32,000 nt of DNA from Xanthomonas campestris pv. campestris str. ATCC 33913 (lineage in GTDB: Bacteria > Pseudomonadota > Gammaproteobacteria > Xanthomonadales > Xanthomonadaceae): the NCBI RefSeq assembly GCF_000007145.1, contig NC_003902.1:1207436-1239435 (forward strand), in the 5' to 3' direction. The notes under the pieces were generated by a model, which was given only the letters and a program-made list of their open reading frames with translations, was not told where the DNA came from and did not search any database. The translations under genes were made by a program, and so were the position numbers. Each line of letters begins with the position of its first letter. Position 1 is the stretch's first letter. Positions 9,908 to 28,147 of this stretch are shown one piece after another.

Positions 9908-11233
9908 TCACCCGATGCGCATTGCCGAACCCTCACGCACCCGGTTGTCCATCTCCTGCTGCTGGCTTTGCACTAATGCCTGTTGGCGATCCGTGTTGGC
10001 AATTTCCAGCCGCTGCAGCGATTGCTCAACCGGCGTCTGCACCGCGACATCGGTCGGCATGTGAGCGCGCAGGTGCGCGGGGTTATTCAATTCGCCCTGT
10101 ACAACAAACACGTGACGCCCGGCGGGGCTGTCGGCTGTCTGTGTGCTCAGCACCACGTGATCGGCGCGGTCCAGGTTGTTCTGGCGGGCGAGGGTCATCA
10201 CGCTGGCGATGAGGCGCTCACTGTTCTCGTCCGGTGTGCGCCCGGCTTGCGCATCGATGGCGTTGACGCCTGCGCGGACCTGCTGCAGCAATGCATAGTC
10301 CCGGTGGCCAGGCCCAATATCGGCCAGTTGGGTGGGCGCCTGTTTCGGGTCTAGAACGCCATCGACCGACGCGGTTAACGGGCTGCGGGTGATGGAGCGG
10401 TGCGGGTCGTCCTCATGAAACTGCGTGGCTTTGTGCTGCCGTTCCATGCGGACGGCGCGGGTATCGTTGAGTTCGGCGATACGGCCGGGATTGGTCTCTT
10501 CGCGCATGGAAAGATGCCCGCCGCCTGCGCTGACATTCACCCATTTTTGCTCTTTTTCGAAGTACATCGCATAGAAGCTGTTGCTGCCGATCACATTGGG
10601 ATCGACCGCGGAGCGGCCTTCCAGCATCTGGATCGCGTCGGTCGTCCCCAGCTTTGCCAGGTACTGGCTGCCGTCCACCACCCCCATTTGCGCAAAGGTC
10701 TCGTAGCCCGTGTTGCTGATACGGGTGGTGCCGGCGTACTCGTTGTCGAGCATGTTGGTCCAGATCTGCTCCAGCTTCTGGGGGCCGCTTTTTTCCAATG
10801 CCGCTTGCAGAAGGACGCGAGGCGTCCAGCAGTTGGGGTCGAGCTCATGGTCCAGGAAGGCTTGGTCGTGCGCCAGCATGACGGAGGCCCCGGGCAGGTT
10901 CAGCGCCAGATCTGGACGATCTTGACGGAACCAGATTTTCCGAAGTTCAAGATCCTTCTTGAGCAGTGTCTGTCCAAAATCCTCCCACTGCCGCTCGCTC
11001 AAGTCCGCGTTGGCAAAACGAGAGCCAGTATCGTGCTGTGTCCTGGCATAGTCTTGCGCGTAACTGTTGGCCACTTGGCCGGGCAAGCTGTCGTTGCGCA
11101 CCACGCCCAGCGCCAGCGTACCGTAGCCGTCCGCGCCATCCAGCTGCGAAAGATAGTTCCAGTACAACTCGCGATTGCCTTTATCCGCGTAGTTGGTAAG
11201 GATCTTGAGATCTTGCCCAGTCAATCCACTCAT
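9908..11233 (-). CDS. Putative X-T4SS effector (X-Tfe): unknown N-terminal toxin domain plus C-terminal XVIPCD secretion domain
   Basis: 441 aa. The C-terminal 132 aa (9908-10306) read ..SERLIASVMTLARQNNLDRADHVVLS....VFVVQGELNNPAHLRAHMPTDVAVQTPVEQSLQRL followed by a Gln-rich tail. This fits the XVIPCD pattern and is clearly homologous to the tail of the 16317-17981 gene. GGGAG RBS. The gene starts 25 nt after a lipoprotein gene. Confidence 0.8.
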   Translation of the reverse strand: MSGLTGQDLKILTNYADKGNRELYWNYLSQLDGADGYGTLALGVVRNDSLPGQVANSYAQDYARTQHDTGSRFANADLSERQWEDFGQTLLKKDLELRKIWFRQDRPDLALNLPGASVMLAHDQAFLDHELDPNCWTPRVLLQAALEKSGPQKLEQIWTNMLDNEYAGTTRISNTGYETFAQMGVVDGSQYLAKLGTTDAIQMLEGRSAVDPNVIGSNSFYAMYFEKEQKWVNVSAGGGHLSMREETNPGRIAELNDTRAVRMERQHKATQFHEDDPHRSITRSPLTASVDGVLDPKQAPTQLADIGPGHRDYALLQQVRAGVNAIDAQAGRTPDENSERLIASVMTLARQNNLDRADHVVLSTQTADSPAGRHVFVVQGELNNPAHLRAHMPTDVAVQTPVEQSLQRLEIANTDRQQALVQSQQQEMDNRVREGSAMRIG

Positions 11234-19370: not shown

Positions 19371-19393
19371 TTGCGATCATGCATCGCAATTGC
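19371..19393. promoter_or_regulatory. Overlapping inverted repeats upstream of the ParD-like gene (possible operator)
   Basis: TTGCGAT-catgc-ATCGCAA (19371-19389) overlaps the palindrome GCAATTGC (19386-19393), about 20 nt before ATG 19411. Confidence 0.4.
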
Positions 19394-19410
19394 AACGCAC
19401 TGGGCCGGCC

Positions 19411-19674
19411 ATGAAATCCGCATCACTTCCATCGCTCCGGGTAGACCCGGCGCTGCGCGAAGCGGCCGAAGCCGTGTTGCAGGAGGGTGAGACGCTTTCC
19501 AGCTTTGTCGAGCACTCCGTGCGTGCCCAGGTGCAGCAGCGCCAGCAGCAGGAAGCCTTCATTGCCCGTGGGCTGGCTTCGCGTGACAGCGCCAAGGCAT
19601 CCAACCGGTACATCGAGGCGAAGGATGTGCTGGCCGGGCTGCAGTCCCAACTGGACAAGGCGCGCAAGGGCTGA
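19411..19674 (+). CDS. RHH-type antitoxin, ParD/CopG-like
   Basis: 87 aa. The N-terminal beta-strand/helix pattern SLRVDPALREAAEAVLQEGETLSSFVEHSV fits a ribbon-helix-helix. It lies directly upstream of a ParE/RelE-like gene. Confidence 0.6.
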   Translation: MKSASLPSLRVDPALREAAEAVLQEGETLSSFVEHSVRAQVQQRQQQEAFIARGLASRDSAKASNRYIEAKDVLAGLQSQLDKARKG

Positions 19675-19680
19675 GCCAGC

Positions 19681-19989
19681 GTGGGATATTCCGTCCGCTT
19701 CACTCAGTACGCGCGCAACGATCTCGCGCGTCTTTACGACTGGCTGCTACAGCGTGCCGAAAGCGGCTTCACCGTGGTCGAGCGCGCGCTGCAGGCCATC
19801 CGCGACGGCGTCACCGTGCTGGCACTTGCCCCGTTGAGCTGCCGCAAGGCGGTGCCGGCAGACCCGTTCTTGCGGGAGTTGGTGATCGGCTTCGGTGCCA
19901 GCGGCTATGTGCTGCTGTTTGAGGTTGAAAGCAATCAGGTCGTCACCGTTTTGGCAGTCAGGCATCAGCGTGAAGACGACTATCATTGA
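19681..19989 (+). CDS. ParE/RelE-family toxin
   Basis: 102 aa, GTG start 6 nt after the antitoxin stop. Y..A..DL..LYDWL.. followed by LRELVIGFGASGYVLLFEVESNQVVTVLAVRHQRE is the typical ParE/RelE C-terminal beta-sheet. Confidence 0.75.
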   Translation: MGYSVRFTQYARNDLARLYDWLLQRAESGFTVVERALQAIRDGVTVLALAPLSCRKAVPADPFLRELVIGFGASGYVLLFEVESNQVVTVLAVRHQREDDYH

Positions 19990-20026
19990 GTTAGGCACCT
20001 GCGTCCACCTCTTGGCGTGAGAGTCG

Positions 20027-23000
20027 ATGCCCGGGCAGGGCCAAAATCAGGGGTTAAAGATAGTGAGTGACCAGTTTTTCAAGCAGCCTATTCTCAATTC
20101 TCCATACGGTTACCCGTCTTTGCACTGGGAGCTCGACGAAAAGGGGCAACCTACACAGCAAGTAGTCAAATCTCGCCGAGCATCCAGCTTCGTTAGTCCG
20201 ATTCCAAAGCCACGTCGGCACCAGGGCGAGCAGGCTACCCTGGCGCTGGATGAAGTTGAGAGCCTGGCTGACGACGGGCAGCGCTACCGACACTCTGAGC
20301 TAATCAATTCGGTGCGGCGGGAGGTCGATGCTTGGCGTCTCTTGCCACCTGCGCAGTGGCGCGTCACCCCTGAAACAGCCCGCTTACTGGAACATTGGCG
20401 CAACCACAAGTTCGCCGGTGTGCGCCCATTCTTTTGCCAAGTAGAAGCGGCCGAGACCGCCATCTGGTTGGCCGAGGTCGCTCCACAGCTTGGAAAGAAC
20501 GGCGAGCGCTTCCTCGATCACCTGAAAAAGGCCAGCACTGATGCCAATCCCGGCTTGATGCGTTTGGCGCTGAAGCTGGCGACTGGTGCAGGCAAGACCA
20601 CGGTCATGGCCATGCTCATTGCCTGGCAGACGGTTAATGCCGTACGGCATCCGCAGAGCAAGAAATTCACCCGTGGTTTCTTGCTGGTCGCTCCTGGCCT
20701 GACCATCAAGGATCGTTTGCGTGTGCTATTGCCCAATGATGCAGACAGCTACTACGCCAACCGCGAAATCGTGCCACGCGACATGCTGGCCGATTTGGAC
20801 AAGGCCAAGATCGTTATCACCAATTACCACGCTTTCAAGCGACGTGAACGCATGGAGCTGTCCAAGGGCGGCCGCCGCCTGTTGCAAGGCCGTACCGGCA
20901 GCGAGCTGGAAACGCTGGAAACCGAGGGACAGATGCTCCAGCGAGTCATGCCGGAATTGATGGGGCTGAAGAATATTCTTGCCATCAACGACGAGGCACA
21001 CCATTGCTATCGGGAGAAGCCGCACGCTGCCGTAGACGATGAAGATCTCGATAAAGATCAGAAAGCGGAAGCCGAGGACAACAATGAAGCCGCTCGGCTT
21101 TGGATTTCTGGCCTAGAAGCGGTCAACCGCAAGCTGGGGCTGCAGCAGGTGATGGACCTGTCTGCAACGCCTTTCTTCCTGGCCGGCTCTGGCTATGTGG
21201 AGGGCACGCTCTTTCCGTGGACGATGAGCGATTTCTCGCTGATGGACGCTATCGAATGCGGCATCGTCAAGTTGCCGCGCGTGCCGGTCGCCGACAACAT
21301 TCCCGGTGCGGAAATGCCCATCTATCGTGAGCTCTGGAAGCACATAGGCAAGAAGATGCCGAAGAAGGGGCGCGGCAAAAACGCCCAGCTCGATCCATTG
21401 GCCATCCCGGTGGAATTGCAGACCGCACTGGAAGCTCTGTACGGCCACTACCTCAAAACCTACGAAGCTTGGAAGCAGGCAGGCATCAACGTTCCGCCAT
21501 GCTTCATTGTGGTGTGCAACAACACCGCAACTTCCAAACTGGTGTTCGATTACATCTCCGGCTTCGAGCGCACGAATGAGGATGGCTCCAGCACGCGTGT
21601 GCCAGGCCGGTTGGAGCTGTTCCGCAACTTCGACGAACATGGCGAGCCGCTGGCGCGCCCAAACACCTTGCTGATCGACAGCGAGCAACTCGAATCTGGC
21701 GAGGCGCTGGACGATAACTTCCGGGGGATGGCCGCCGACGAGATCGAACGCTTCAAGCGCGAGATCATCGAGCGCACCGGCGATCGCGGCCAGGCTGAGA
21801 ACCTGAGTGACAGCGAATTGCTGCGAGAGGTAATGAACACCGTGGGCAAGCAGGGCCGCTTGGGCGAACAAATTCGCTGCGTGGTGTCGGTGTCCATGCT
21901 CACGGAAGGTTGGGATGCCAATACCGTTACCCACATCCTCGGGGTGCGTGCGTTCGGCACCCAACTGCTGTGCGAGCAGGTGATTGGCCGTGCCCTGCGT
22001 CGTCAGTCCTATGAATTGAACGAACAAGGCCTCTTTGACGTGGAGTACGCCGACGTATTCGGCATCCCCTTCGACTTCACAGCCAAACCAGTCGTCGTCA
22101 CGCCGCCCAAGCCCCGCGAAACCATCACAGTCAAGGCACTGCGCCCGGAACGCGATCATCTGGAAATCTGGTTCCCGCGCGTGCAGGGCTATCGCGTCGA
22201 GCTGCCAGAAGAACAACTCGAAGCTGAATTCAACGACGACCACCACGTCAGCCTGACGCCCGACAGGGTTGGTGCGACCAAGACCCACAACGCCGGCATC
22301 ATTGGCGAGGCAGTGGAGCTGGATATCAAGCATCTGGGAGACGTGCGCCAGTCCACCCTGCTGATGGAGTTGACCAAGCATCTGCTGTTCCAGCATTGGC
22401 GTGATAAAGGCCAGGATGCACCGATTGCATTGTTTGGTCAGCTCAAGCGCATCGTGCGCCAGTGGCTGGACGAGTGCCTGGAGTGCAAGGGCGGCACGTA
22501 TCCGGCGCAGTTGATGTACCGCGAACTGGCGGACATGGCCTGCCAGCGCATCACCAAGGGTATTACCGCGAAGGAACTGGAAAAGGGCCGGCAGGTCAAA
22601 GCCATCCTCGACCCATTCAACCCGACCGGCAGCACCGCGCACGTGCGTTTCAACACTTCGCGTCCGGGCAGTGAACGCTGGGAAACCCTCGGTGTAGAGA
22701 ACCAGCCGAAAAACCAGGTCAACTGGGTGATTCTGGACAGCGGCTGGGAAGGCGAATTCTGTCGCATCGCCGAATCGCATCCCAAGGTGCTGGCCTACAC
22801 CAAGAACCACAACCTCGGCCTGGAAGTACCCTACCGCTTTGGCTCGGCCAACCGCATCTACATACCTGACTTCATCGTTCAAGTGGACGATGGTCGCGGC
22901 AAGAACGATTCACTGAATCTGATCGTCGAGATCAAGGGCTACCGGCGCGAAGATGCGAAGGAGAAGAAGTCCACCATGGACACCTACTGGATTCCTGGCG

Positions 23001-23149
23001 TGAACCACCTCGGCACACACGGTCGCTGGGCCTTCGTCGAGTTTGGTGACGTTTACGAAATGCAGGATGACTTCGCCAAAGAGGTCGAGGCGAAGTTCAA
23101 CCAAATGATTGAAACGGCTGTGCCCGCGCCGGGAAACAAGGAATACTGA
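20027..23149 (+). CDS. Type III restriction Res-like subunit: SF2 DEAH helicase with a C-terminal PD-(D/E)xK nuclease
   Basis: Walker A TGAGKTT (20582-20602), DEAH (20990-21001), motif VI QVIGRALRR, and a C-terminal IPDF..(20 aa)..VEIKG nuclease-like motif. The alternative GTG start at 20063 gives MSDQFFKQPILNSPY. Confidence 0.85.
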   Translation: MPGQGQNQGLKIVSDQFFKQPILNSPYGYPSLHWELDEKGQPTQQVVKSRRASSFVSPIPKPRRHQGEQATLALDEVESLADDGQRYRHSELINSVRREVDAWRLLPPAQWRVTPETARLLEHWRNHKFAGVRPFFCQVEAAETAIWLAEVAPQLGKNGERFLDHLKKASTDANPGLMRLALKLATGAGKTTVMAMLIAWQTVNAVRHPQSKKFTRGFLLVAPGLTIKDRLRVLLPNDADSYYANREIVPRDMLADLDKAKIVITNYHAFKRRERMELSKGGRRLLQGRTGSELETLETEGQMLQRVMPELMGLKNILAINDEAHHCYREKPHAAVDDEDLDKDQKAEAEDNNEAARLWISGLEAVNRKLGLQQVMDLSATPFFLAGSGYVEGTLFPWTMSDFSLMDAIECGIVKLPRVPVADNIPGAEMPIYRELWKHIGKKMPKKGRGKNAQLDPLAIPVELQTALEALYGHYLKTYEAWKQAGINVPPCFIVVCNNTATSKLVFDYISGFERTNEDGSSTRVPGRLELFRNFDEHGEPLARPNTLLIDSEQLESGEALDDNFRGMAADEIERFKREIIERTGDRGQAENLSDSELLREVMNTVGKQGRLGEQIRCVVSVSMLTEGWDANTVTHILGVRAFGTQLLCEQVIGRALRRQSYELNEQGLFDVEYADVFGIPFDFTAKPVVVTPPKPRETITVKALRPERDHLEIWFPRVQGYRVELPEEQLEAEFNDDHHVSLTPDRVGATKTHNAGIIGEAVELDIKHLGDVRQSTLLMELTKHLLFQHWRDKGQDAPIALFGQLKRIVRQWLDECLECKGGTYPAQLMYRELADMACQRITKGITAKELEKGRQVKAILDPFNPTGSTAHVRFNTSRPGSERWETLGVENQPKNQVNWVILDSGWEGEFCRIAESHPKVLAYTKNHNLGLEVPYRFGSANRIYIPDFIVQVDDGRGKNDSLNLIVEIKGYRREDAKEKKSTMDTYWIPGVNHLGTHGRWAFVEFGDVYEMQDDFAKEVEAKFNQMIETAVPAPGNKEY

Positions 23150-23150
23150 T

Positions 23151-26069
23151 ATGGCAACGAAGAAAACAGAGAAGCACGGCAAGAGTATCGAGCAGATCAC
23201 TCATACCGAGGCCAAACGCAAGAACATTCCGACGGTGGAGCATCAGTCGGTGATGCAGCATCACGAGCAAGCGCCGGTGCAGGTGGCCTACCCACGTGCC
23301 AACCGGCAATGGTTAGAGGAACTGTGCGCTTTGCATGACGCGGGAAAGGTCTCCCAGGAATTCCAGCAGCGACTTAACCGCGATCTTGACCCGCAACTCA
23401 TCTGGCGCGGCAAGGACCAGCAGGATTGGTCGGATCTGGTCGTCAACGCGCCGCCTCTCTACATCCAGGAAAAGGTCAAGCCCAAGGCGCTGATCGACGA
23501 CCTGCGCCGTCAGACCGACGCGCGCCGCGAAGCCGCCGCGCCGCAGCAGCAGGACATGCTGGATCTATTCGGCGACTTCAACGGCCTGCCCGAAGGCGCG
23601 GACCGCACCGAGTTCTACCAGCACGAGGGCCATTGGCAGAACCGTATGATCCTGGGCGATTCCTTGCAGGTGATGGCCAGCCTGGCCGAGCGCGAAGGGT
23701 TGCGCGGCAAGGTGCAGTGCATTTATTTCGATCCGCCGTATGGCATCAAATTCAACAGCAATTTCCAGTGGTCAACCACTAGCCGTGATGTGAAGGATGG
23801 CAATACCGGCCATATCACTCGCGAACCGGAGCAGGTTAAGGCGTTCAGGGATACCTGGCGCGACGGGATTCATTCGTATCTGACGTATTTGCGTGACCGA
23901 TTGATGGTGGCGCGGGATTTGTTGACGGAATCTGGGTCGATCTTTGTGCAGATTGGTGATGAGAACGTGCATCGCGTGCGGGCTGTGCTTGATGAAGTTT
24001 TTGGCGAAGATAACTTTGTCTCTATGATTCAGGTGCAAAAAACAGGTAGCCAAGCGTCAAATCTTTTGGCGAATACAGTTGACTTTGTTTTGTGGTATGC
24101 CCGCACAAAGAAAAAAGTCAAATATCGACAGCTTTACTCGGACCGCACTGCAGGGCATGTTTCTTCCGATCGCTACGATCAAATCGAACTTGACGACGGC
24201 GAAGAACGTCGGCTTAAGCGTGATGAATTGGATAGAAAGGTTGAAATTCCGCCAGGCCGAATTTTTCGGCAAACTAGCCTAATATCATCTGGTCAAGCGT
24301 CAAGCGAACAAATCTTTGTTTTTCAGAACAAGCAATATCGTCCGGGTGCATCGAATCATTGGAAAACGACAGTCAGTGGTCTTGGCGTTCTTGCAAAGGC
24401 AGGGCGTATTGCGGCAGGCGCGTCAACGGTGCACTACAAACGCTATCTTAATGACTTCTCCGTTTTGCCTATCGCAGATCGTTGGGAGTCGCTGCAAATC
24501 GGCACGGGCTTGATCTACGTTGTGCAAACCGCAACCTCAGTCGTAGAGAGGTGCCTGTTGATGGCATCCGACCCTGGCGATCTAGTGCTCGACCCTACCT
24601 GCGGCTCCGGTACCACCGCCTATGTTGCCGAACAATGGGGACGCCGGTGGGTGACCATCGACACAAGTCGCGTCGCGTTAGCACTGGCCCGCGCGCGGAT
24701 AATGGGAGCGCGCTACCCGTATTATCTACTGGCCGATTCCCGCGAAGGTCAATTGAAGGAGGGCGAGATTACCCGCTGCGCGCCCTCCAGCCAGCCCGCC
24801 TGGGGTAACATTGTCCACGGCTTCGTCTATGAACGCGTGCCACACATCACGCTCAAATCCATCGCCAACAACGCCGAGATTGAAGTCATCTGGGACAAGT
24901 TCCGGACTACGCTGGAGTCGCTGCGCGAAAAGCTGAGCCATGCACTCGGCAAGCAGTGGAAGGAGTGGGAGATTCCGCGCGAAGCCGATGCAAAATGGAG
25001 CCATACCGCGAAAGAGTTGCATGCCGACTGGTGGCAGCAACGAGTCGCCTGCCAAAAGGAAATTGACGCCTCGATCGCGGCCAAGGCCGAGTTCGAGTAC
25101 CTCTACGACAAACCCTACGGGGACAAGAAGAAGGTGCGAGTGGCGGGCCCCTTCACGGTTGAATCGCTTAGTCCGCACCGCGTATTGGGCGTGGACGAGG
25201 AAGACAACCTGATTGACCATGTGGCCGAGACCCAAGCCGAATACGGTCAGGACTTTGCCAGCCTGATCCTGGCCAACCTGCGCACCGCCGGTGTGCAGCA
25301 GGCACGCAAGGCCGACAAGATCGAATTCACCTCACTAGAGCCGTGGCCGGGCGAACTGGTCTGCGCCGAAGGCCGCTACCTCGAAAATGGACAGGTGAAG
25401 CGTGCCGGCATCCTAGTTGGTCCGGAATTTGGCACGGTCACCCGCGCTGACCTAGTTGATGCCGCCCGCGAAGCGGGTGATGCCAACTTCGATGTACTAA
25501 TTGCCTGCGCCTTTAACTACGACGCTCCTGCCAGCGAGTTCAGTAAGCTGGGCCGCATCAATGTACTCAAAGCGCGCATGAATGCCGAGCTACACATGGC
25601 CGAAGACCTGAAGAACACCGGCAAGGGCAATCTGTTCGTGATCTTCGGCGAGCCGGATGTGGACGTGCTGGACACACAGGGTCACAGCATCCGCCGATAC
25701 GATGGCAAGCGTGACGTTATCGAGGTACCTGCCGACGGGCAACTGGTGGTGCGCATCAACGGCGTGGATGTATTCCATCCCAGCACCGGTGAAGTGCGTA
25801 GCGACGGTGCAGACGGCATCGCCTGCTGGTTTTTGGATACCGACTACAACGAGGAATCCTTCTTCGTCCGCCATGCCTACTTCCTCGGCGCGAACGACCC
25901 GTACAAGGCTCTGAAGACTACCCTCAAAGCTGAAATCGACCCCGACGCCTGGGCAACGCTCAACTGCGACACCTCGCGCCCTTTCCCGAAACCGAGTAAC
26001 GGTCGGTTTGCGGTGAAGGTCATCAATCACCTCGGTGATGAGGTGATGAAGGTATTTAAGGTGAACTGA
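23151..26069 (+). CDS. Beta-class (motif IV before motif I) N6-adenine-type DNA methyltransferase, 972 aa, Mod-like with a long C-terminal extension
   Basis: DPPY at 23730-23741 and DPTCGSGTT at 24591-24617. AAGGAA RBS. ATG lies 1 nt after the Res stop. About 440 aa follow motif I. Confidence 0.9.
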   Translation: MATKKTEKHGKSIEQITHTEAKRKNIPTVEHQSVMQHHEQAPVQVAYPRANRQWLEELCALHDAGKVSQEFQQRLNRDLDPQLIWRGKDQQDWSDLVVNAPPLYIQEKVKPKALIDDLRRQTDARREAAAPQQQDMLDLFGDFNGLPEGADRTEFYQHEGHWQNRMILGDSLQVMASLAEREGLRGKVQCIYFDPPYGIKFNSNFQWSTTSRDVKDGNTGHITREPEQVKAFRDTWRDGIHSYLTYLRDRLMVARDLLTESGSIFVQIGDENVHRVRAVLDEVFGEDNFVSMIQVQKTGSQASNLLANTVDFVLWYARTKKKVKYRQLYSDRTAGHVSSDRYDQIELDDGEERRLKRDELDRKVEIPPGRIFRQTSLISSGQASSEQIFVFQNKQYRPGASNHWKTTVSGLGVLAKAGRIAAGASTVHYKRYLNDFSVLPIADRWESLQIGTGLIYVVQTATSVVERCLLMASDPGDLVLDPTCGSGTTAYVAEQWGRRWVTIDTSRVALALARARIMGARYPYYLLADSREGQLKEGEITRCAPSSQPAWGNIVHGFVYERVPHITLKSIANNAEIEVIWDKFRTTLESLREKLSHALGKQWKEWEIPREADAKWSHTAKELHADWWQQRVACQKEIDASIAAKAEFEYLYDKPYGDKKKVRVAGPFTVESLSPHRVLGVDEEDNLIDHVAETQAEYGQDFASLILANLRTAGVQQARKADKIEFTSLEPWPGELVCAEGRYLENGQVKRAGILVGPEFGTVTRADLVDAAREAGDANFDVLIACAFNYDAPASEFSKLGRINVLKARMNAELHMAEDLKNTGKGNLFVIFGEPDVDVLDTQGHSIRRYDGKRDVIEVPADGQLVVRINGVDVFHPSTGEVRSDGADGIACWFLDTDYNEESFFVRHAYFLGANDPYKALKTTLKAEIDPDAWATLNCDTSRPFPKPSNGRFAVKVINHLGDEVMKVFKVN

Positions 26070-28147
26070 TGGAATTCCGGATCGCCGATACGTTTACTAC
26101 CAGCCTTGCCCGCTTGACCGGTGATGAGCAGAAGGCCGCCAAGACCACCGCGTTCGATTTGCAGGTTAATCCGAGCGGCAAGGGTATGAGCTTTCATAAG
26201 CTCGACAGGGCCAAAGACCTGAATTTCTGGTCAGTGCGCGTCAGCCGTGACATCCGTCTGATCGTTCACAAAACAGCGGGCAGCCTGTTGCTGTGCTACG
26301 TCGATCACCACGACAGGGCCTATCAATGGGCCGAGCGGCGCAAGCTTGAGGTGCATCCGACGACCGGCGCGGCACAACTCGTCGAGATCCGCGAACGTGT
26401 CGAGGAAATCCTCGTTCCGAAGTACGTCGAGGATCGTGCATCGGCTACGCGCCCTAAGCCGAAATTTTTCGAAAAATACAGTGATGCGCAATTGCTGGCC
26501 TATGGCGTGCCGCAGGAATGGCTAGGCGATGTAAAGGCTAGCGATGAGGATTCGCTGCTGGATTTGGCTGATCACCTGCCGGGCGAAGCGGCCGAGGCGC
26601 TGCTCGAACTTGCGACCGGCGGTACGCCTGCGTTGCCGGAAGTGGCGAGCAAAGGAGCAGACCCATTCCAGCACCCCGATGCGCAACGCCGCTTCCGCGT
26701 CATGTCTGATATGGACGAGTTGGTTCGCGCCCTTGAGTATCCATGGGACAAATGGACTGTGTTCCTACATCCGGCACAGCGGCAACTCGTCGAACGGAAT
26801 TACAACGGAGCGGCGCGCGTGTCCGGCTCGGCGGGCACGGGAAAAACTGTGGTGGCTTTGCACCGCGCTGTGCATCTGGCACATAAAGATGAAGACGCAC
26901 GTGTTCTGCTTTCCACGTTTTCCGATACCCTGGCCAACGCGTTGCGCGGCAATCTGTACCGACTTATCTGGAACACTCCTAAGCTCGGCGAGCGTATCGA
27001 CGTGGCTGCGATGGAGGCTATCGGTATTCGCTTGTATTCAGCGGAATTTGGCAAGCCAGTATTCGCTAGCCGGGATGAAATTTCCACTCTGCTGAAGGCT
27101 GCCGCCATGCAAGTCGATGGCCTGAAAGCCAACACTGCATTCATGCTCTCCGAATGGGAGGACGTGGTAGACACCTGGCAGGTCGATGACTGGGAGAGTT
27201 ACCGGGATGCCAAGCGGTTGGGCCGAAAGACGCGCCTACCGGAGGTGCAGCGCGCCTTGTATTGGCAGGCATTCGCCCAAGTAAAGTCACAGTTGGAACA
27301 GGCTGGCAAGATCACTGCCGCTGAAATGTTCGCTAGGCTTGCCGAAGTCATGCCCAAGCGTAAGCATCCGGTATTCGATTACATCGTGGTGGATGAGGCG
27401 CAGGACATTAGCGTGCAACAATTGCGCTTCCTTGCAACGATTTCCGGCAATCGCGCCAATGCACTCTTTTTCTCTGGCGACCTCGGCCAACGCATCTTCC
27501 AGACGCCGTTCTCGTGGAAACATCTGGGTGTTGATGTGCGTGGTCGATCGCGCACGCTCAATATCAATTACCGTACGTCACACCAGATTCGCTTGCAGGC
27601 CGACCGGCTACTCGGCCCCGATGTATCTGATGTGGACGGAAACGTCGAAAGCCGTAAGGGCACAATTTCCGTGTTCAATGGGCCGGAGCCGACCATCTGC
27701 AGCTATGCCGATGCCGACGCGGAAATCCAGGCTGTCGGTGTATGGTTGAAACAATGCAATAGCAGTGGCGTGCTGCCGCAGGAAATAGGTCTCTTTGTCC
27801 GGTCCGAAAGTGAATTGTCTCGCGCACAAGCGGCAGTAAAGGCCGCTGACCTGCAAGGGCGCGCACTTGGTAAGGACATGGCCACGGAAGAGAGCTTCGT
27901 CACTATTACCACCATGCATTTAGCCAAGGGCATGGAATTTCGCGTGGTTGCGGTGATGGCCTGCGATGATGAAATCATTCCTTCACAGATGCGCATCGAC
28001 ACTGCTGCCGACGAGGCCGATTTGACCGAAATCTACAATACCGAGCGCCAGTTGCTGTACGTGGCTTGCACCCGTGCCCGCGATCAGCTGCTTGTCTCGG
28101 CAGTGAAGCCGGAGTCTGAGTTTTTGCGAGATCTGGTGCAAGAGTAA
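26069..28147 (+). CDS. SF1 UvrD/Rep-like helicase with an N-terminal RelE/ParE-like domain
   Basis: ATG overlaps the Mod stop (TGATG). Motifs: GSAGTGKT (26825-26848), VVDEAQD, GDLGQRIF, INYRTSHQI, TMHLAKGMEFRVV and LLYVACTRARDQL. N-terminal roughly 90 aa: F..SL..L...EQ....TAFDLQ.NP..KG...HKL.......WSVRVSRDIRLIVHK...SLLLCYVDHHDRAYQWA. Confidence 0.85.
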   Translation: MEFRIADTFTTSLARLTGDEQKAAKTTAFDLQVNPSGKGMSFHKLDRAKDLNFWSVRVSRDIRLIVHKTAGSLLLCYVDHHDRAYQWAERRKLEVHPTTGAAQLVEIRERVEEILVPKYVEDRASATRPKPKFFEKYSDAQLLAYGVPQEWLGDVKASDEDSLLDLADHLPGEAAEALLELATGGTPALPEVASKGADPFQHPDAQRRFRVMSDMDELVRALEYPWDKWTVFLHPAQRQLVERNYNGAARVSGSAGTGKTVVALHRAVHLAHKDEDARVLLSTFSDTLANALRGNLYRLIWNTPKLGERIDVAAMEAIGIRLYSAEFGKPVFASRDEISTLLKAAAMQVDGLKANTAFMLSEWEDVVDTWQVDDWESYRDAKRLGRKTRLPEVQRALYWQAFAQVKSQLEQAGKITAAEMFARLAEVMPKRKHPVFDYIVVDEAQDISVQQLRFLATISGNRANALFFSGDLGQRIFQTPFSWKHLGVDVRGRSRTLNINYRTSHQIRLQADRLLGPDVSDVDGNVESRKGTISVFNGPEPTICSYADADAEIQAVGVWLKQCNSSGVLPQEIGLFVRSESELSRAQAAVKAADLQGRALGKDMATEESFVTITTMHLAKGMEFRVVAVMACDDEIIPSQMRIDTAADEADLTEIYNTERQLLYVACTRARDQLLVSAVKPESEFLRDLVQE

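Follow-up and report, generated by a model that had tools for sequence, protein, structure and literature searches.

The window analysed here is a stretch of 32,000 nucleotides (nt) from Xanthomonas campestris pv. campestris str. ATCC 33913 (contig NC_003902.1, positions 1,207,436 to 1,239,435). Its forward strand carries a cassette of three genes that ends with the subject of this study, an ArmD-like RelE-UvrD helicase of 692 amino acids (aa; 26069..28147, with the ATG at 26069 and the stop at 28147). The first gene of the cassette (20027..23149, +) encodes a restriction endonuclease (REase) of the BPTD_3080 family with 1040 aa, composed of a Res-like superfamily 2 (SF2) motor and a C-terminal endonuclease. 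The protein scores 1350.7 bits against NCBIfam NF046055 (cut-off 800) and matches the Pfam models ResIII and, weakly, RE_endonuc. The second gene (23151..26069, +) encodes a large N6/N4 DNA methyltransferase (MTase) of 972 aa, counted from the ATG at 23151, which matches the PADLOC model MTase_III PDLC03632 over its full length with 1898 bits and PF01555 with an E-value of 7e-31. The MTase ATG sits 1 nt past the REase stop and the helicase ATG overlaps the MTase stop in the sequence TGATG (26067-26071), thus the three genes form a tight operon. A Shine-Dalgarno-like AAGGTG (26058..26063, +) can be read 5 nt 5' of the helicase ATG. An earlier, sequence-only reading of the window had located the helicase inside a restriction-modification (R-M) operon, and this is borne out by the BPTD_3080 REase and the N6/N4 MTase directly upstream. 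In our best explanation, the cassette is a horizontally mobile R-M unit resembling Type III systems, with the helicase as its third, translationally coupled gene.

The helicase protein is built from four parts. Residues 1-108 (26069..26392, +) make up a predicted RelE/YoeB/YafQ-type (BECR-fold) domain, the N-domain, in which aa 91-106 form a beta hairpin specific to the family and which is modelled by AlphaFold with a predicted local distance difference test (pLDDT) score above 90 over most of its length. It is followed by a flexible, poorly conserved linker (aa 109-138; 26393..26482, +) with a pLDDT below 50 at residues 111-125, no secondary structure up to residue 138 and 47% identity in the 121-160 interval. 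A family-specific helical adaptor (aa 139-232; 26483..26764, +) comes next, with confident helices at 139-182 and 203-232 that are kept in both clades of the family described below. Its motifs are LL.YGVP..WL and LP.EA.EAL..LA.G, followed by RRF.V...EL...L..P...W.VFLHP, and no Pfam model matches it. The remainder (aa 233-692; 26765..28147, +) is a UvrD/GajB-like superfamily 1 (SF1) helicase core, recognized by Pfam, PADLOC and its motifs. Both Pfam matches lie above the cut-off (PF00580 with 60.8 bits, E 2e-16; PF13361 with 58.7 bits, E 9e-16), and in PADLOC the best match is NERD+UvrD (E 7e-30), next to GajB (E 4e-25). By motif position, the Walker A lysine is K259 (GTGKT at 256; codon 26843-26845, +) and the Walker B aspartate is D442 (VVDEAQD at 440; codon 27392-27394, +). 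With UvrD N- and C-terminal domains and both Walker motifs the protein belongs to the UvrD/Rep/PcrA-type SF1A helicases, which confirms that the N-domain is fused to a UvrD-like motor. It is not an ortholog of UvrD, Rep, PcrA or HelD, because its scores fall far under the NCBIfam equivalog cut-offs. Among the Pfam, NCBIfam and PADLOC models, no helicase accessory model matched residues 1-232. Routine annotation hides the toxin-like domain under labels such as "UvrD-helicase domain-containing protein", "3'-5' exonuclease" or "ATP-dependent helicase".

The sequence-only reading had assigned a RelE/ParE-like pattern to the N-terminus, and all motifs that it quoted were located (EFRIADTF at residues 2-9, HKL at 43-45, WSVRV at 54-58 and DHHD at 79-82). 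Its "E-Q-K" signature did not hold up, since Q21 alone is conserved family-wide. When the N-domain was compared with PDB sequences, both as a single sequence and as a profile, the outcome was noise and a marginal match to RelE3 at E 1.4, so that the fold could not be decided from sequence alone. The isolated N-domain had no matches in NCBIfam or PADLOC. An initial AlphaFold model of aa 1-115, built on a shallow alignment (74-94% identity), reached a pLDDT of 60; Foldseek already returned RelE toxins for this model, at E 1e-2 or worse and with template modelling (TM) scores of 0.3-0.45. It was superseded by an AlphaFold2 model of aa 1-235 based on an alignment of 150 sequences (29-87% identity), deepened via plasmid-borne distant relatives (28-48% identity) that were used to collect a second clade. 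This second model has a pLDDT of 86.3 and a predicted TM score (pTM) of 0.80. Its elements follow each other in the RelE-type order b1 (2-6), a1 (7-14), a2 (18-33), b2 (42-44), b3 (53-57), b4 (62-68), b5 (72-80) and a3 (81-89); past a3 the model shows the extra hairpin (91-106), the disordered linker and the helical adaptor (139-232).

Among the top 50 PDB structures that Foldseek matched to this model, 47 were RelE/YoeB/YafQ/HigB/ParE toxins and the other 3 were RelE-domain fusions (Cami1 twice, Txp40 once). The top match was YoeB (2a6r_C; E 4.2e-4, probability 1.00), and RelE from M. jannaschii (3bpq_B) was found with E 5.7e-4, a TM score by target of 0.76, a root mean square deviation of 2.4 Å over 84 columns and again a probability of 1.00. 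The TM scores by target were 0.67-0.76 for RelE/YoeB structures versus 0.54-0.61 for ParE. Profile comparison points in the same direction: a 10-sequence family profile aligned with E. coli YoeB (a sequence identical to PDB 2a6q_E) in hhalign at E 1.4e-4, and the Pfam model PF05015 (HigB-like_toxin) matches 31 of 35 diverse family members below its threshold, with a best E-value of 7.5e-5. Many homologs are already named "mRNA-degrading endonuclease RelE" by JGI. Based on the model, we predict with high confidence that aa 1-108 adopt a RelE/YoeB/YafQ-type toxin fold. The structural matches are near-exclusively RelE/ParE and of high probability, and no model for a helicase accessory domain covers aa 1-110; either a missing RelE/ParE match or such an accessory assignment would have spoken against the original claim.

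The hhalign register places H43, R57, R63 and H81 on Glu46, Arg59, Arg65 and His83 of YoeB. In YoeB, Glu46 serves as general base, Arg59 and Arg65 stabilize the transition state and His83 is the general acid; in YafQ the base is a histidine, His50 (PMC3814384). We compared these positions in 149 homologs, 57 from the clade of the window protein and 92 from its sister clade, the ArmD clade. The predicted general base H43 (codon 26195..26197, +), chemically like YafQ His50, is His in 57/57 sequences of the window clade, and Glu stands at this position in 92/92 of the ArmD clade. R57 (26237..26239, +) is Arg in 57/57 and 91/92 sequences, respectively. R63 (26255..26257, +), which corresponds to a transition-state-stabilizing arginine, and H81 (26309..26311, +), which corresponds to the general acid and opens the invariant motif H-D-x-A-Y-x-W-A, are invariant in 149/149. 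The alignment of RelE catalytic residues, proposed as a check together with the original claim, therefore shows all four positions retained in 148 of the 149 homologs, with His or Glu at position 43. As judged from the alignment, the His/Glu switch at this position preserves general-base chemistry and parallels the difference between YafQ and YoeB. With acid and base residues and arginines on b2-b4 and the C-terminal element, the N-domain falls into the RNase branch of RelE/YoeB/YafQ, and its near-invariant YoeB-type catalytic set favours a functioning effector, predicted to be an RNase.

The N-domain is also the most conserved part of the protein. Across phyla its identity to the window protein is 77-93% (median 82%), and the other median identities are 71% for the REase, 65% for the MTase, 62% for linker and adaptor and 60% for the helicase core. 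In 40-residue windows the conservation of the N-domain equals that of the REase and MTase catalytic cores. At identical residues, the same codon is used in 47% of cases in the N-domain versus 40% in the helicase core; since synonymous sites have diverged, the conservation reflects selection at the protein level. On the same figures we rejected recent DNA exchange beside the cargo insertion site described below as the source of the high identity.

The architecture itself is not new: a 2025 preprint described it as ArmD, a component of the ARMADA type II defence system. This system consists of four genes that are all required, and the ArmD substitution K266A abolishes defence (10.1101/2025.09.15.676423); the phenotype of an armD deletion was confirmed in enterohaemorrhagic E. 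coli (EHEC; mBio 2026, PMC13463889). The window protein is collinear with an ArmD homolog from an E. coli plasmid over residues 5-686 (34% identity, E 9e-101). K259 and D442 align with K266 and D454 of this homolog, the numbering of which is the published one, and its gene follows those for two giant proteins, an MTase and a DEAD-box helicase. By this comparison the window protein is a member of the ArmD family. The window cassette is not an ARMADA type II system, as no ArmA, ArmB or ArmC gene lies upstream of the helicase, and the context of a giant MTase and a DEAD/DUF1998 helicase was seen in the distant (ArmD) clade only. The R-M cassette appears to be a new context for an ArmD-like protein.

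Genes of this kind are widespread. The N-domain profile was found in at least 595 species genomes, in Proteobacteria, Verrucomicrobia, Planctomycetes, Nitrospirae, Acidobacteria, Chloroflexi, Spirochaetes and other phyla, and the protein search yielded 4,451 clusters at 90% identity or 2,433 at 50% identity. Of the 47 loci with an upstream flank of 9 kb or more, 42 have REase and MTase genes ahead of the helicase gene on the same strand, 4 have the MTase gene alone and 1 has neither. The same REase-MTase-helicase arrangement occurs on IMG/VR contigs (predicted viral) and on Pseudomonas plasmids. Among more remote BPTD_3080 REase-MTase pairs, the one in Rhodococcus comes without the helicase, and in PCC 7002 the third gene codes for a deaminase-domain protein instead, thus the helicase is an accessory of one BPTD_3080 subclade. 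On plasmid pAQ5 of Picosynechococcus PCC 7002 this third gene (L092, 14702-16576) encodes 624 aa with a C-terminal cytidine/dCMP deaminase domain, and an inserted UPF0175/DUF3368 pair separates the REase gene from the MTase gene. A plasmid of Qipengyuania citrea (L087) harbours a 48%-identical RelE-UvrD helicase in a third context. On one side lie genes for an RNase_H-like/SF1 helicase of 1135 aa (annotated as TM0106 RecB-like nuclease) and a 240-aa unknown protein; on the other side lies one for a DUF4011 helicase of 1900 aa with an REase_MTES_1575 domain, and an Abi-family gene adjoins the cluster.

A free-standing RelE-family toxin would be expected next to a cognate, co-transcribed antitoxin gene, and the sequence-only reading had noted that none adjoins the helicase gene. 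This is the case throughout the related loci: in 65 loci the sequence 3' of the helicase gene holds no conserved open reading frame (ORF), from which we conclude that there is no dedicated antitoxin, and inserts upstream are variable or absent. The locus is thus not arranged as a type II toxin-antitoxin (TA) module. Directly upstream of the REase gene, the window does contain a free-standing ParD/ParE pair (19390-19989, +), in which the ParD-like antitoxin has about 87-94 aa. The ParE-family toxin of this pair (19681-19989, 102 aa, PF05016) ends in ...RHQREDDYH. The ParD-like gene was considered as the missing antitoxin and rejected, because the pair is absent from 80 of 80 related loci and bears no detectable similarity to the helicase N-domain. 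On a P. amygdali plasmid a MazEF pair occupies a position similar to that of ParD/ParE in the window. An apparent stand-alone N-domain at another locus (L058, 2570-4101) turned out to be a truncated remnant, a helicase ORF of 205 aa in a decayed locus. A second N-domain fragment lies there upstream of this ORF, and between the two lie a small antitoxin-like ORF and a toxin-like ORF of 127 aa, VapBC/PIN-like as judged by eye.

Several further features of the cassette and its surroundings were observed. In loci L001-L080 two insertion slots, between REase and MTase and between MTase and helicase, hold 0-8 kb of variable defence-like cargo, including Fic/DOC-HTH, DUF4411, AAA_15/AAA_21 ATPases, IrrE/ImmA peptidase, Bro-N and a 1710-aa protein, among others; both slots are empty in the window. 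Within the MTase, aa ~321-480 (window 24111-24590) share 28-39% identity across loci versus 83-93% in the flanking motif regions, a pattern that fits a swapped target-recognition domain and putatively diversified specificities. The C-terminal ~100 residues of the MTase (window 25791-26069; aa ~881-972 when numbered from 23151, 881-986 in ORF numbering) are 84-85% conserved, equal to the helicase N-domain, and could form an interface with the helicase protein. At the MTase N-terminus (~23290-23380, ORF-numbered aa 62-91) there are sub-threshold matches to Cas3 HD domains (TIGR01596, E 3.9e-6, 27 bits against a cut-off of 43; PF18019, E 0.0015). The G+C content is 53-59% over the cassette (window 20001-28000) versus 62-67% in the flanking chromosome, which is expected of acquired DNA. 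No tRNA genes were found in the window. Farther away, the ORF at 9908-11233 (-) contains an X-Tfes XVIPCD domain, the signal of Xanthomonas type IV secretion effectors. Genes for HflK/C-like proteins, PurA and aminopeptidase N lie upstream of it, and the combination points to a Xanthomonas-type chromosome.

Taken together, we propose that the window protein is an ArmD-family protein in which an RNase effector is controlled by a DNA-sensing motor, set in an R-M cassette, and we give this reading a probability of roughly 0.55. RNase activity, ribosome dependence, autoinhibition and trigger of the window protein are what we infer. The motor would engage foreign DNA, or the DNA ends or single strands that arise from restriction, as GajB is reported to do with the products of its partner nuclease GajA. 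ATP-dependent engagement would then release or position the RNase domain, which would otherwise be kept inactive within the protein or a complex, in place of a separate antitoxin. The pTM of 0.80 of the model covering aa 1-235 hints that the adaptor packs on the RNase domain. Once released, the domain would cleave mRNA, most probably ribosome-bound, in the manner of RelE, YoeB and Cami1, and the resulting shutdown of the translation of phage genes would constitute a second defence line.

A number of observations weigh against this proposal. On the window protein itself, PF05015 reaches E 0.008 and 17 bits only, under its curated cut-off of 27, and the Foldseek E-values are modest (4e-4). The position of YoeB Tyr84 is taken by Asp82, which is invariant in the family, and the nearest tyrosine, Y85, is replaced by Met in 16 of 92 ArmD-clade sequences. 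The family-specific hairpin and the adaptor could permanently occlude the face that would contact RNA or the ribosome. The ArmD mutants described in the published texts concern helicase motifs only and not the RelE-like domain (10.1101/2025.09.15.676423, PMC13463889). Finally, the helicase is 100% identical in three sister chromosomes with damaged R-M genes. The first (L095) has a shortened REase gene, and an insertion sequence (IS) transposase stands in place of its MTase gene; in the second (L096) the REase gene is absent and a 472-aa ORF alone precedes the helicase; in the third (L097) the MTase is split into 481 and 472 aa. As it stays intact in sister strains with a disrupted REase or MTase, the helicase protein is tolerated without a functional R-M partner.

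The intact helicase beside broken R-M genes would also suit a domesticated, non-catalytic RelE fold that serves for docking or nucleic-acid binding, with Res/Mod, RNA or the ribosome as partner, and thereby recruits or regulates the helicase. The lack of an antitoxin agrees with this alternative, as do the conservation that reaches well past the catalytic positions (P35, A84, W87, A88, G100 and Q103 vary hardly or not at all across the family) and the equally conserved C-terminus of the adjoining MTase (84-85%), which would fit an interface. We consider it unlikely, because the four catalytic positions are retained in 148/149 sequences across clades that are only ~30% identical, and the sole change, His to Glu, keeps the acid-base function, whereas non-RNase members of the ParE type lack such residues (PMC11980606). 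Moreover, the N-domain is found together with three unrelated sets of partners, which speaks against docking to one particular partner. The sequence-only reading had left open whether the fusion acts as a sensor or effector module or is a domesticated interaction domain; the near-invariant catalytic set of the predicted RNase supports the effector and disfavours the domesticated domain. If the domain is catalytic, it might still work apart from the ribosome, as a nuclease fed by the motor that cuts RNA (phage transcripts, R-loops) or helicase-delivered single strands, comparable to NERD-UvrD, AddA or Cas3 HD-helicase fusions. The best PADLOC match of the helicase is indeed NERD+UvrD, and the N-terminal nuclease of that model (profile 1-198) is exactly the part that is replaced here. 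YoeB has weak ribosome-independent activity (PMC3814384), and a YoeB from A. tumefaciens reportedly cuts DNA (bioRxiv 10.1101/795211). In contrast, the disordered linker of ~30 residues suggests that the domain is tethered and reaches out, unlike a nuclease fixed at an exit channel, the closest structural relatives are ribosome-dependent mRNases, and the conserved base/acid pair implies 2'-OH chemistry and therefore RNA rather than DNA as substrate. We regard such a motor-fed nuclease as less probable again than the domesticated fold.

Since RelE/ParE toxins are classic addiction factors, the toxin domain might also act in cis to make loss of the cassette lethal, as a selfish stabilization of the R-M genes instead of phage defence. 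The cassette is mobile, as seen from its G+C content below that of the flanks and its presence on plasmids and predicted viral contigs, and TA pairs flank it in two genomes. A fused toxin without a labile antitoxin cannot, however, kill post-segregationally in the usual way, the helicase is retained while the R-M genes decay, and ArmD is needed for anti-phage defence (10.1101/2025.09.15.676423, PMC13463889); this makes an addiction function very improbable. Least probable of all is a ParE-like poison of gyrase or topoisomerase delivered by the DNA motor. ParE2 structures occur among the Foldseek matches and the Pfam model ParE_like matches weakly in 13 of 35 family members, but the structural fit to ParE is poorer (TM by target 0.54-0.61 versus 0.67-0.76 for RelE/YoeB), and the catalytic RNase residues, invariant in this family, are missing from ParE toxins (PMC11980606).

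If active, the protein would represent a toxin-fold RNase that is regulated by a covalently attached DNA motor and not by an antitoxin, and an R-M system with a second layer at the RNA level. We speculate further, with distinctly lower confidence, that the cassettes form a widespread class of R-M systems with a built-in back-up that targets translation, in which the DNA motor of the third subunit, on meeting restriction products or foreign DNA that evades restriction, unleashes a tethered, antitoxin-free RelE-type RNase on ribosome-bound mRNA, and that the ArmD-like module serves at least three unrelated defence chassis. Immunity at the DNA level would in this case be linked directly to a shutdown of translation. 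The window clade is very abundant and offers a simpler, three-gene chassis for probing the role of the RelE-like domain, and the near-invariant H43, R57, R63 and H81 are ready targets for mutation.

Among known systems, the mRNA interferases YoeB, YafQ and RelE share with the window domain the fold (TM by target 0.67-0.76), the counterparts of E46, R59, R65 and H83 and, in the case of YafQ, a histidine base. They are free-standing proteins of ~85-95 aa, whereas the window domain carries an extra hairpin, is fused to a helicase part of 580 aa, lacks a cognate antitoxin gene, has Asp in place of YoeB Tyr84 and stays under the Pfam cut-off. A RelE fold that is covalently joined to a sensor within an immune system, likewise without antitoxin, is found in Cami1, the CARF-RelE protein of type III CRISPR systems (PDB 8phj, 8phb). 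According to the titles of these PDB entries, the RelE fusion was solved on the 70S ribosome, so that a tethered, sensor-linked RelE domain can work without an antitoxin. In Cami1 the sensor is a CARF domain that binds cA4 and not a helicase, and its RelE-fold part fits less closely than free-standing toxins do (Foldseek rank 35, E 2.5e-2). For the window protein, DNA is the presumed activator. A survey of multidomain RelE/ParE toxins (Gerdes, 2025; PMC11980606) does not mention helicase fusions.

The helicase core matches the PADLOC models of GajB and NERD-UvrD. The N-terminus of the window protein has a RelE fold and not NERD, and GajB is without such an N-domain. GajB reportedly senses DNA termini generated by its partner nuclease (bioRxiv 10.1101/2023.05.02.539174). 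No GajA-type gene occurs among the called neighbours of the window helicase (REase, MTase and a small XAC0095-domain protein), which sets the locus apart from Gabija. With Type III R-M systems (Res and Mod) the cassette has in common an operon that pairs a Res-like SF2 motor-endonuclease with a Mod-like MTase, the latter bearing a hypervariable region as is typical of specificity domains. It differs by the third gene for a helicase and predicted RNase in the window subclade and by the weak match of its REase to the PADLOC REase_III models (E 2e-4 only), the protein being assigned to the separate NCBIfam BPTD_3080 family. A text search of the literature for the term "BPTD_3080" gave zero occurrences.

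The closest known relative is ArmD (E. coli NCTC 12900; Z5902 in EDL933), which has the same succession of N-terminal RelE-like domain, linker, adaptor and GajB-like UvrD helicase, and both genes stand last in an MTase-containing defence operon. The partners of ArmD are ArmA (BrxHII-like), ArmB (a PglX-like MTase) and ArmC (a YprA/DUF1998 helicase), in contrast to the BPTD_3080 REase and the N6_N4 MTase of the window. The predicted general base is Glu in the ArmD clade and His in the window clade, and the latter is much more uniform, with N-domains that are 77-93% identical across phyla. The novelty of the window system thus lies in an ArmD-like protein with a histidine base that has been recruited to a Type III-like R-M cassette.

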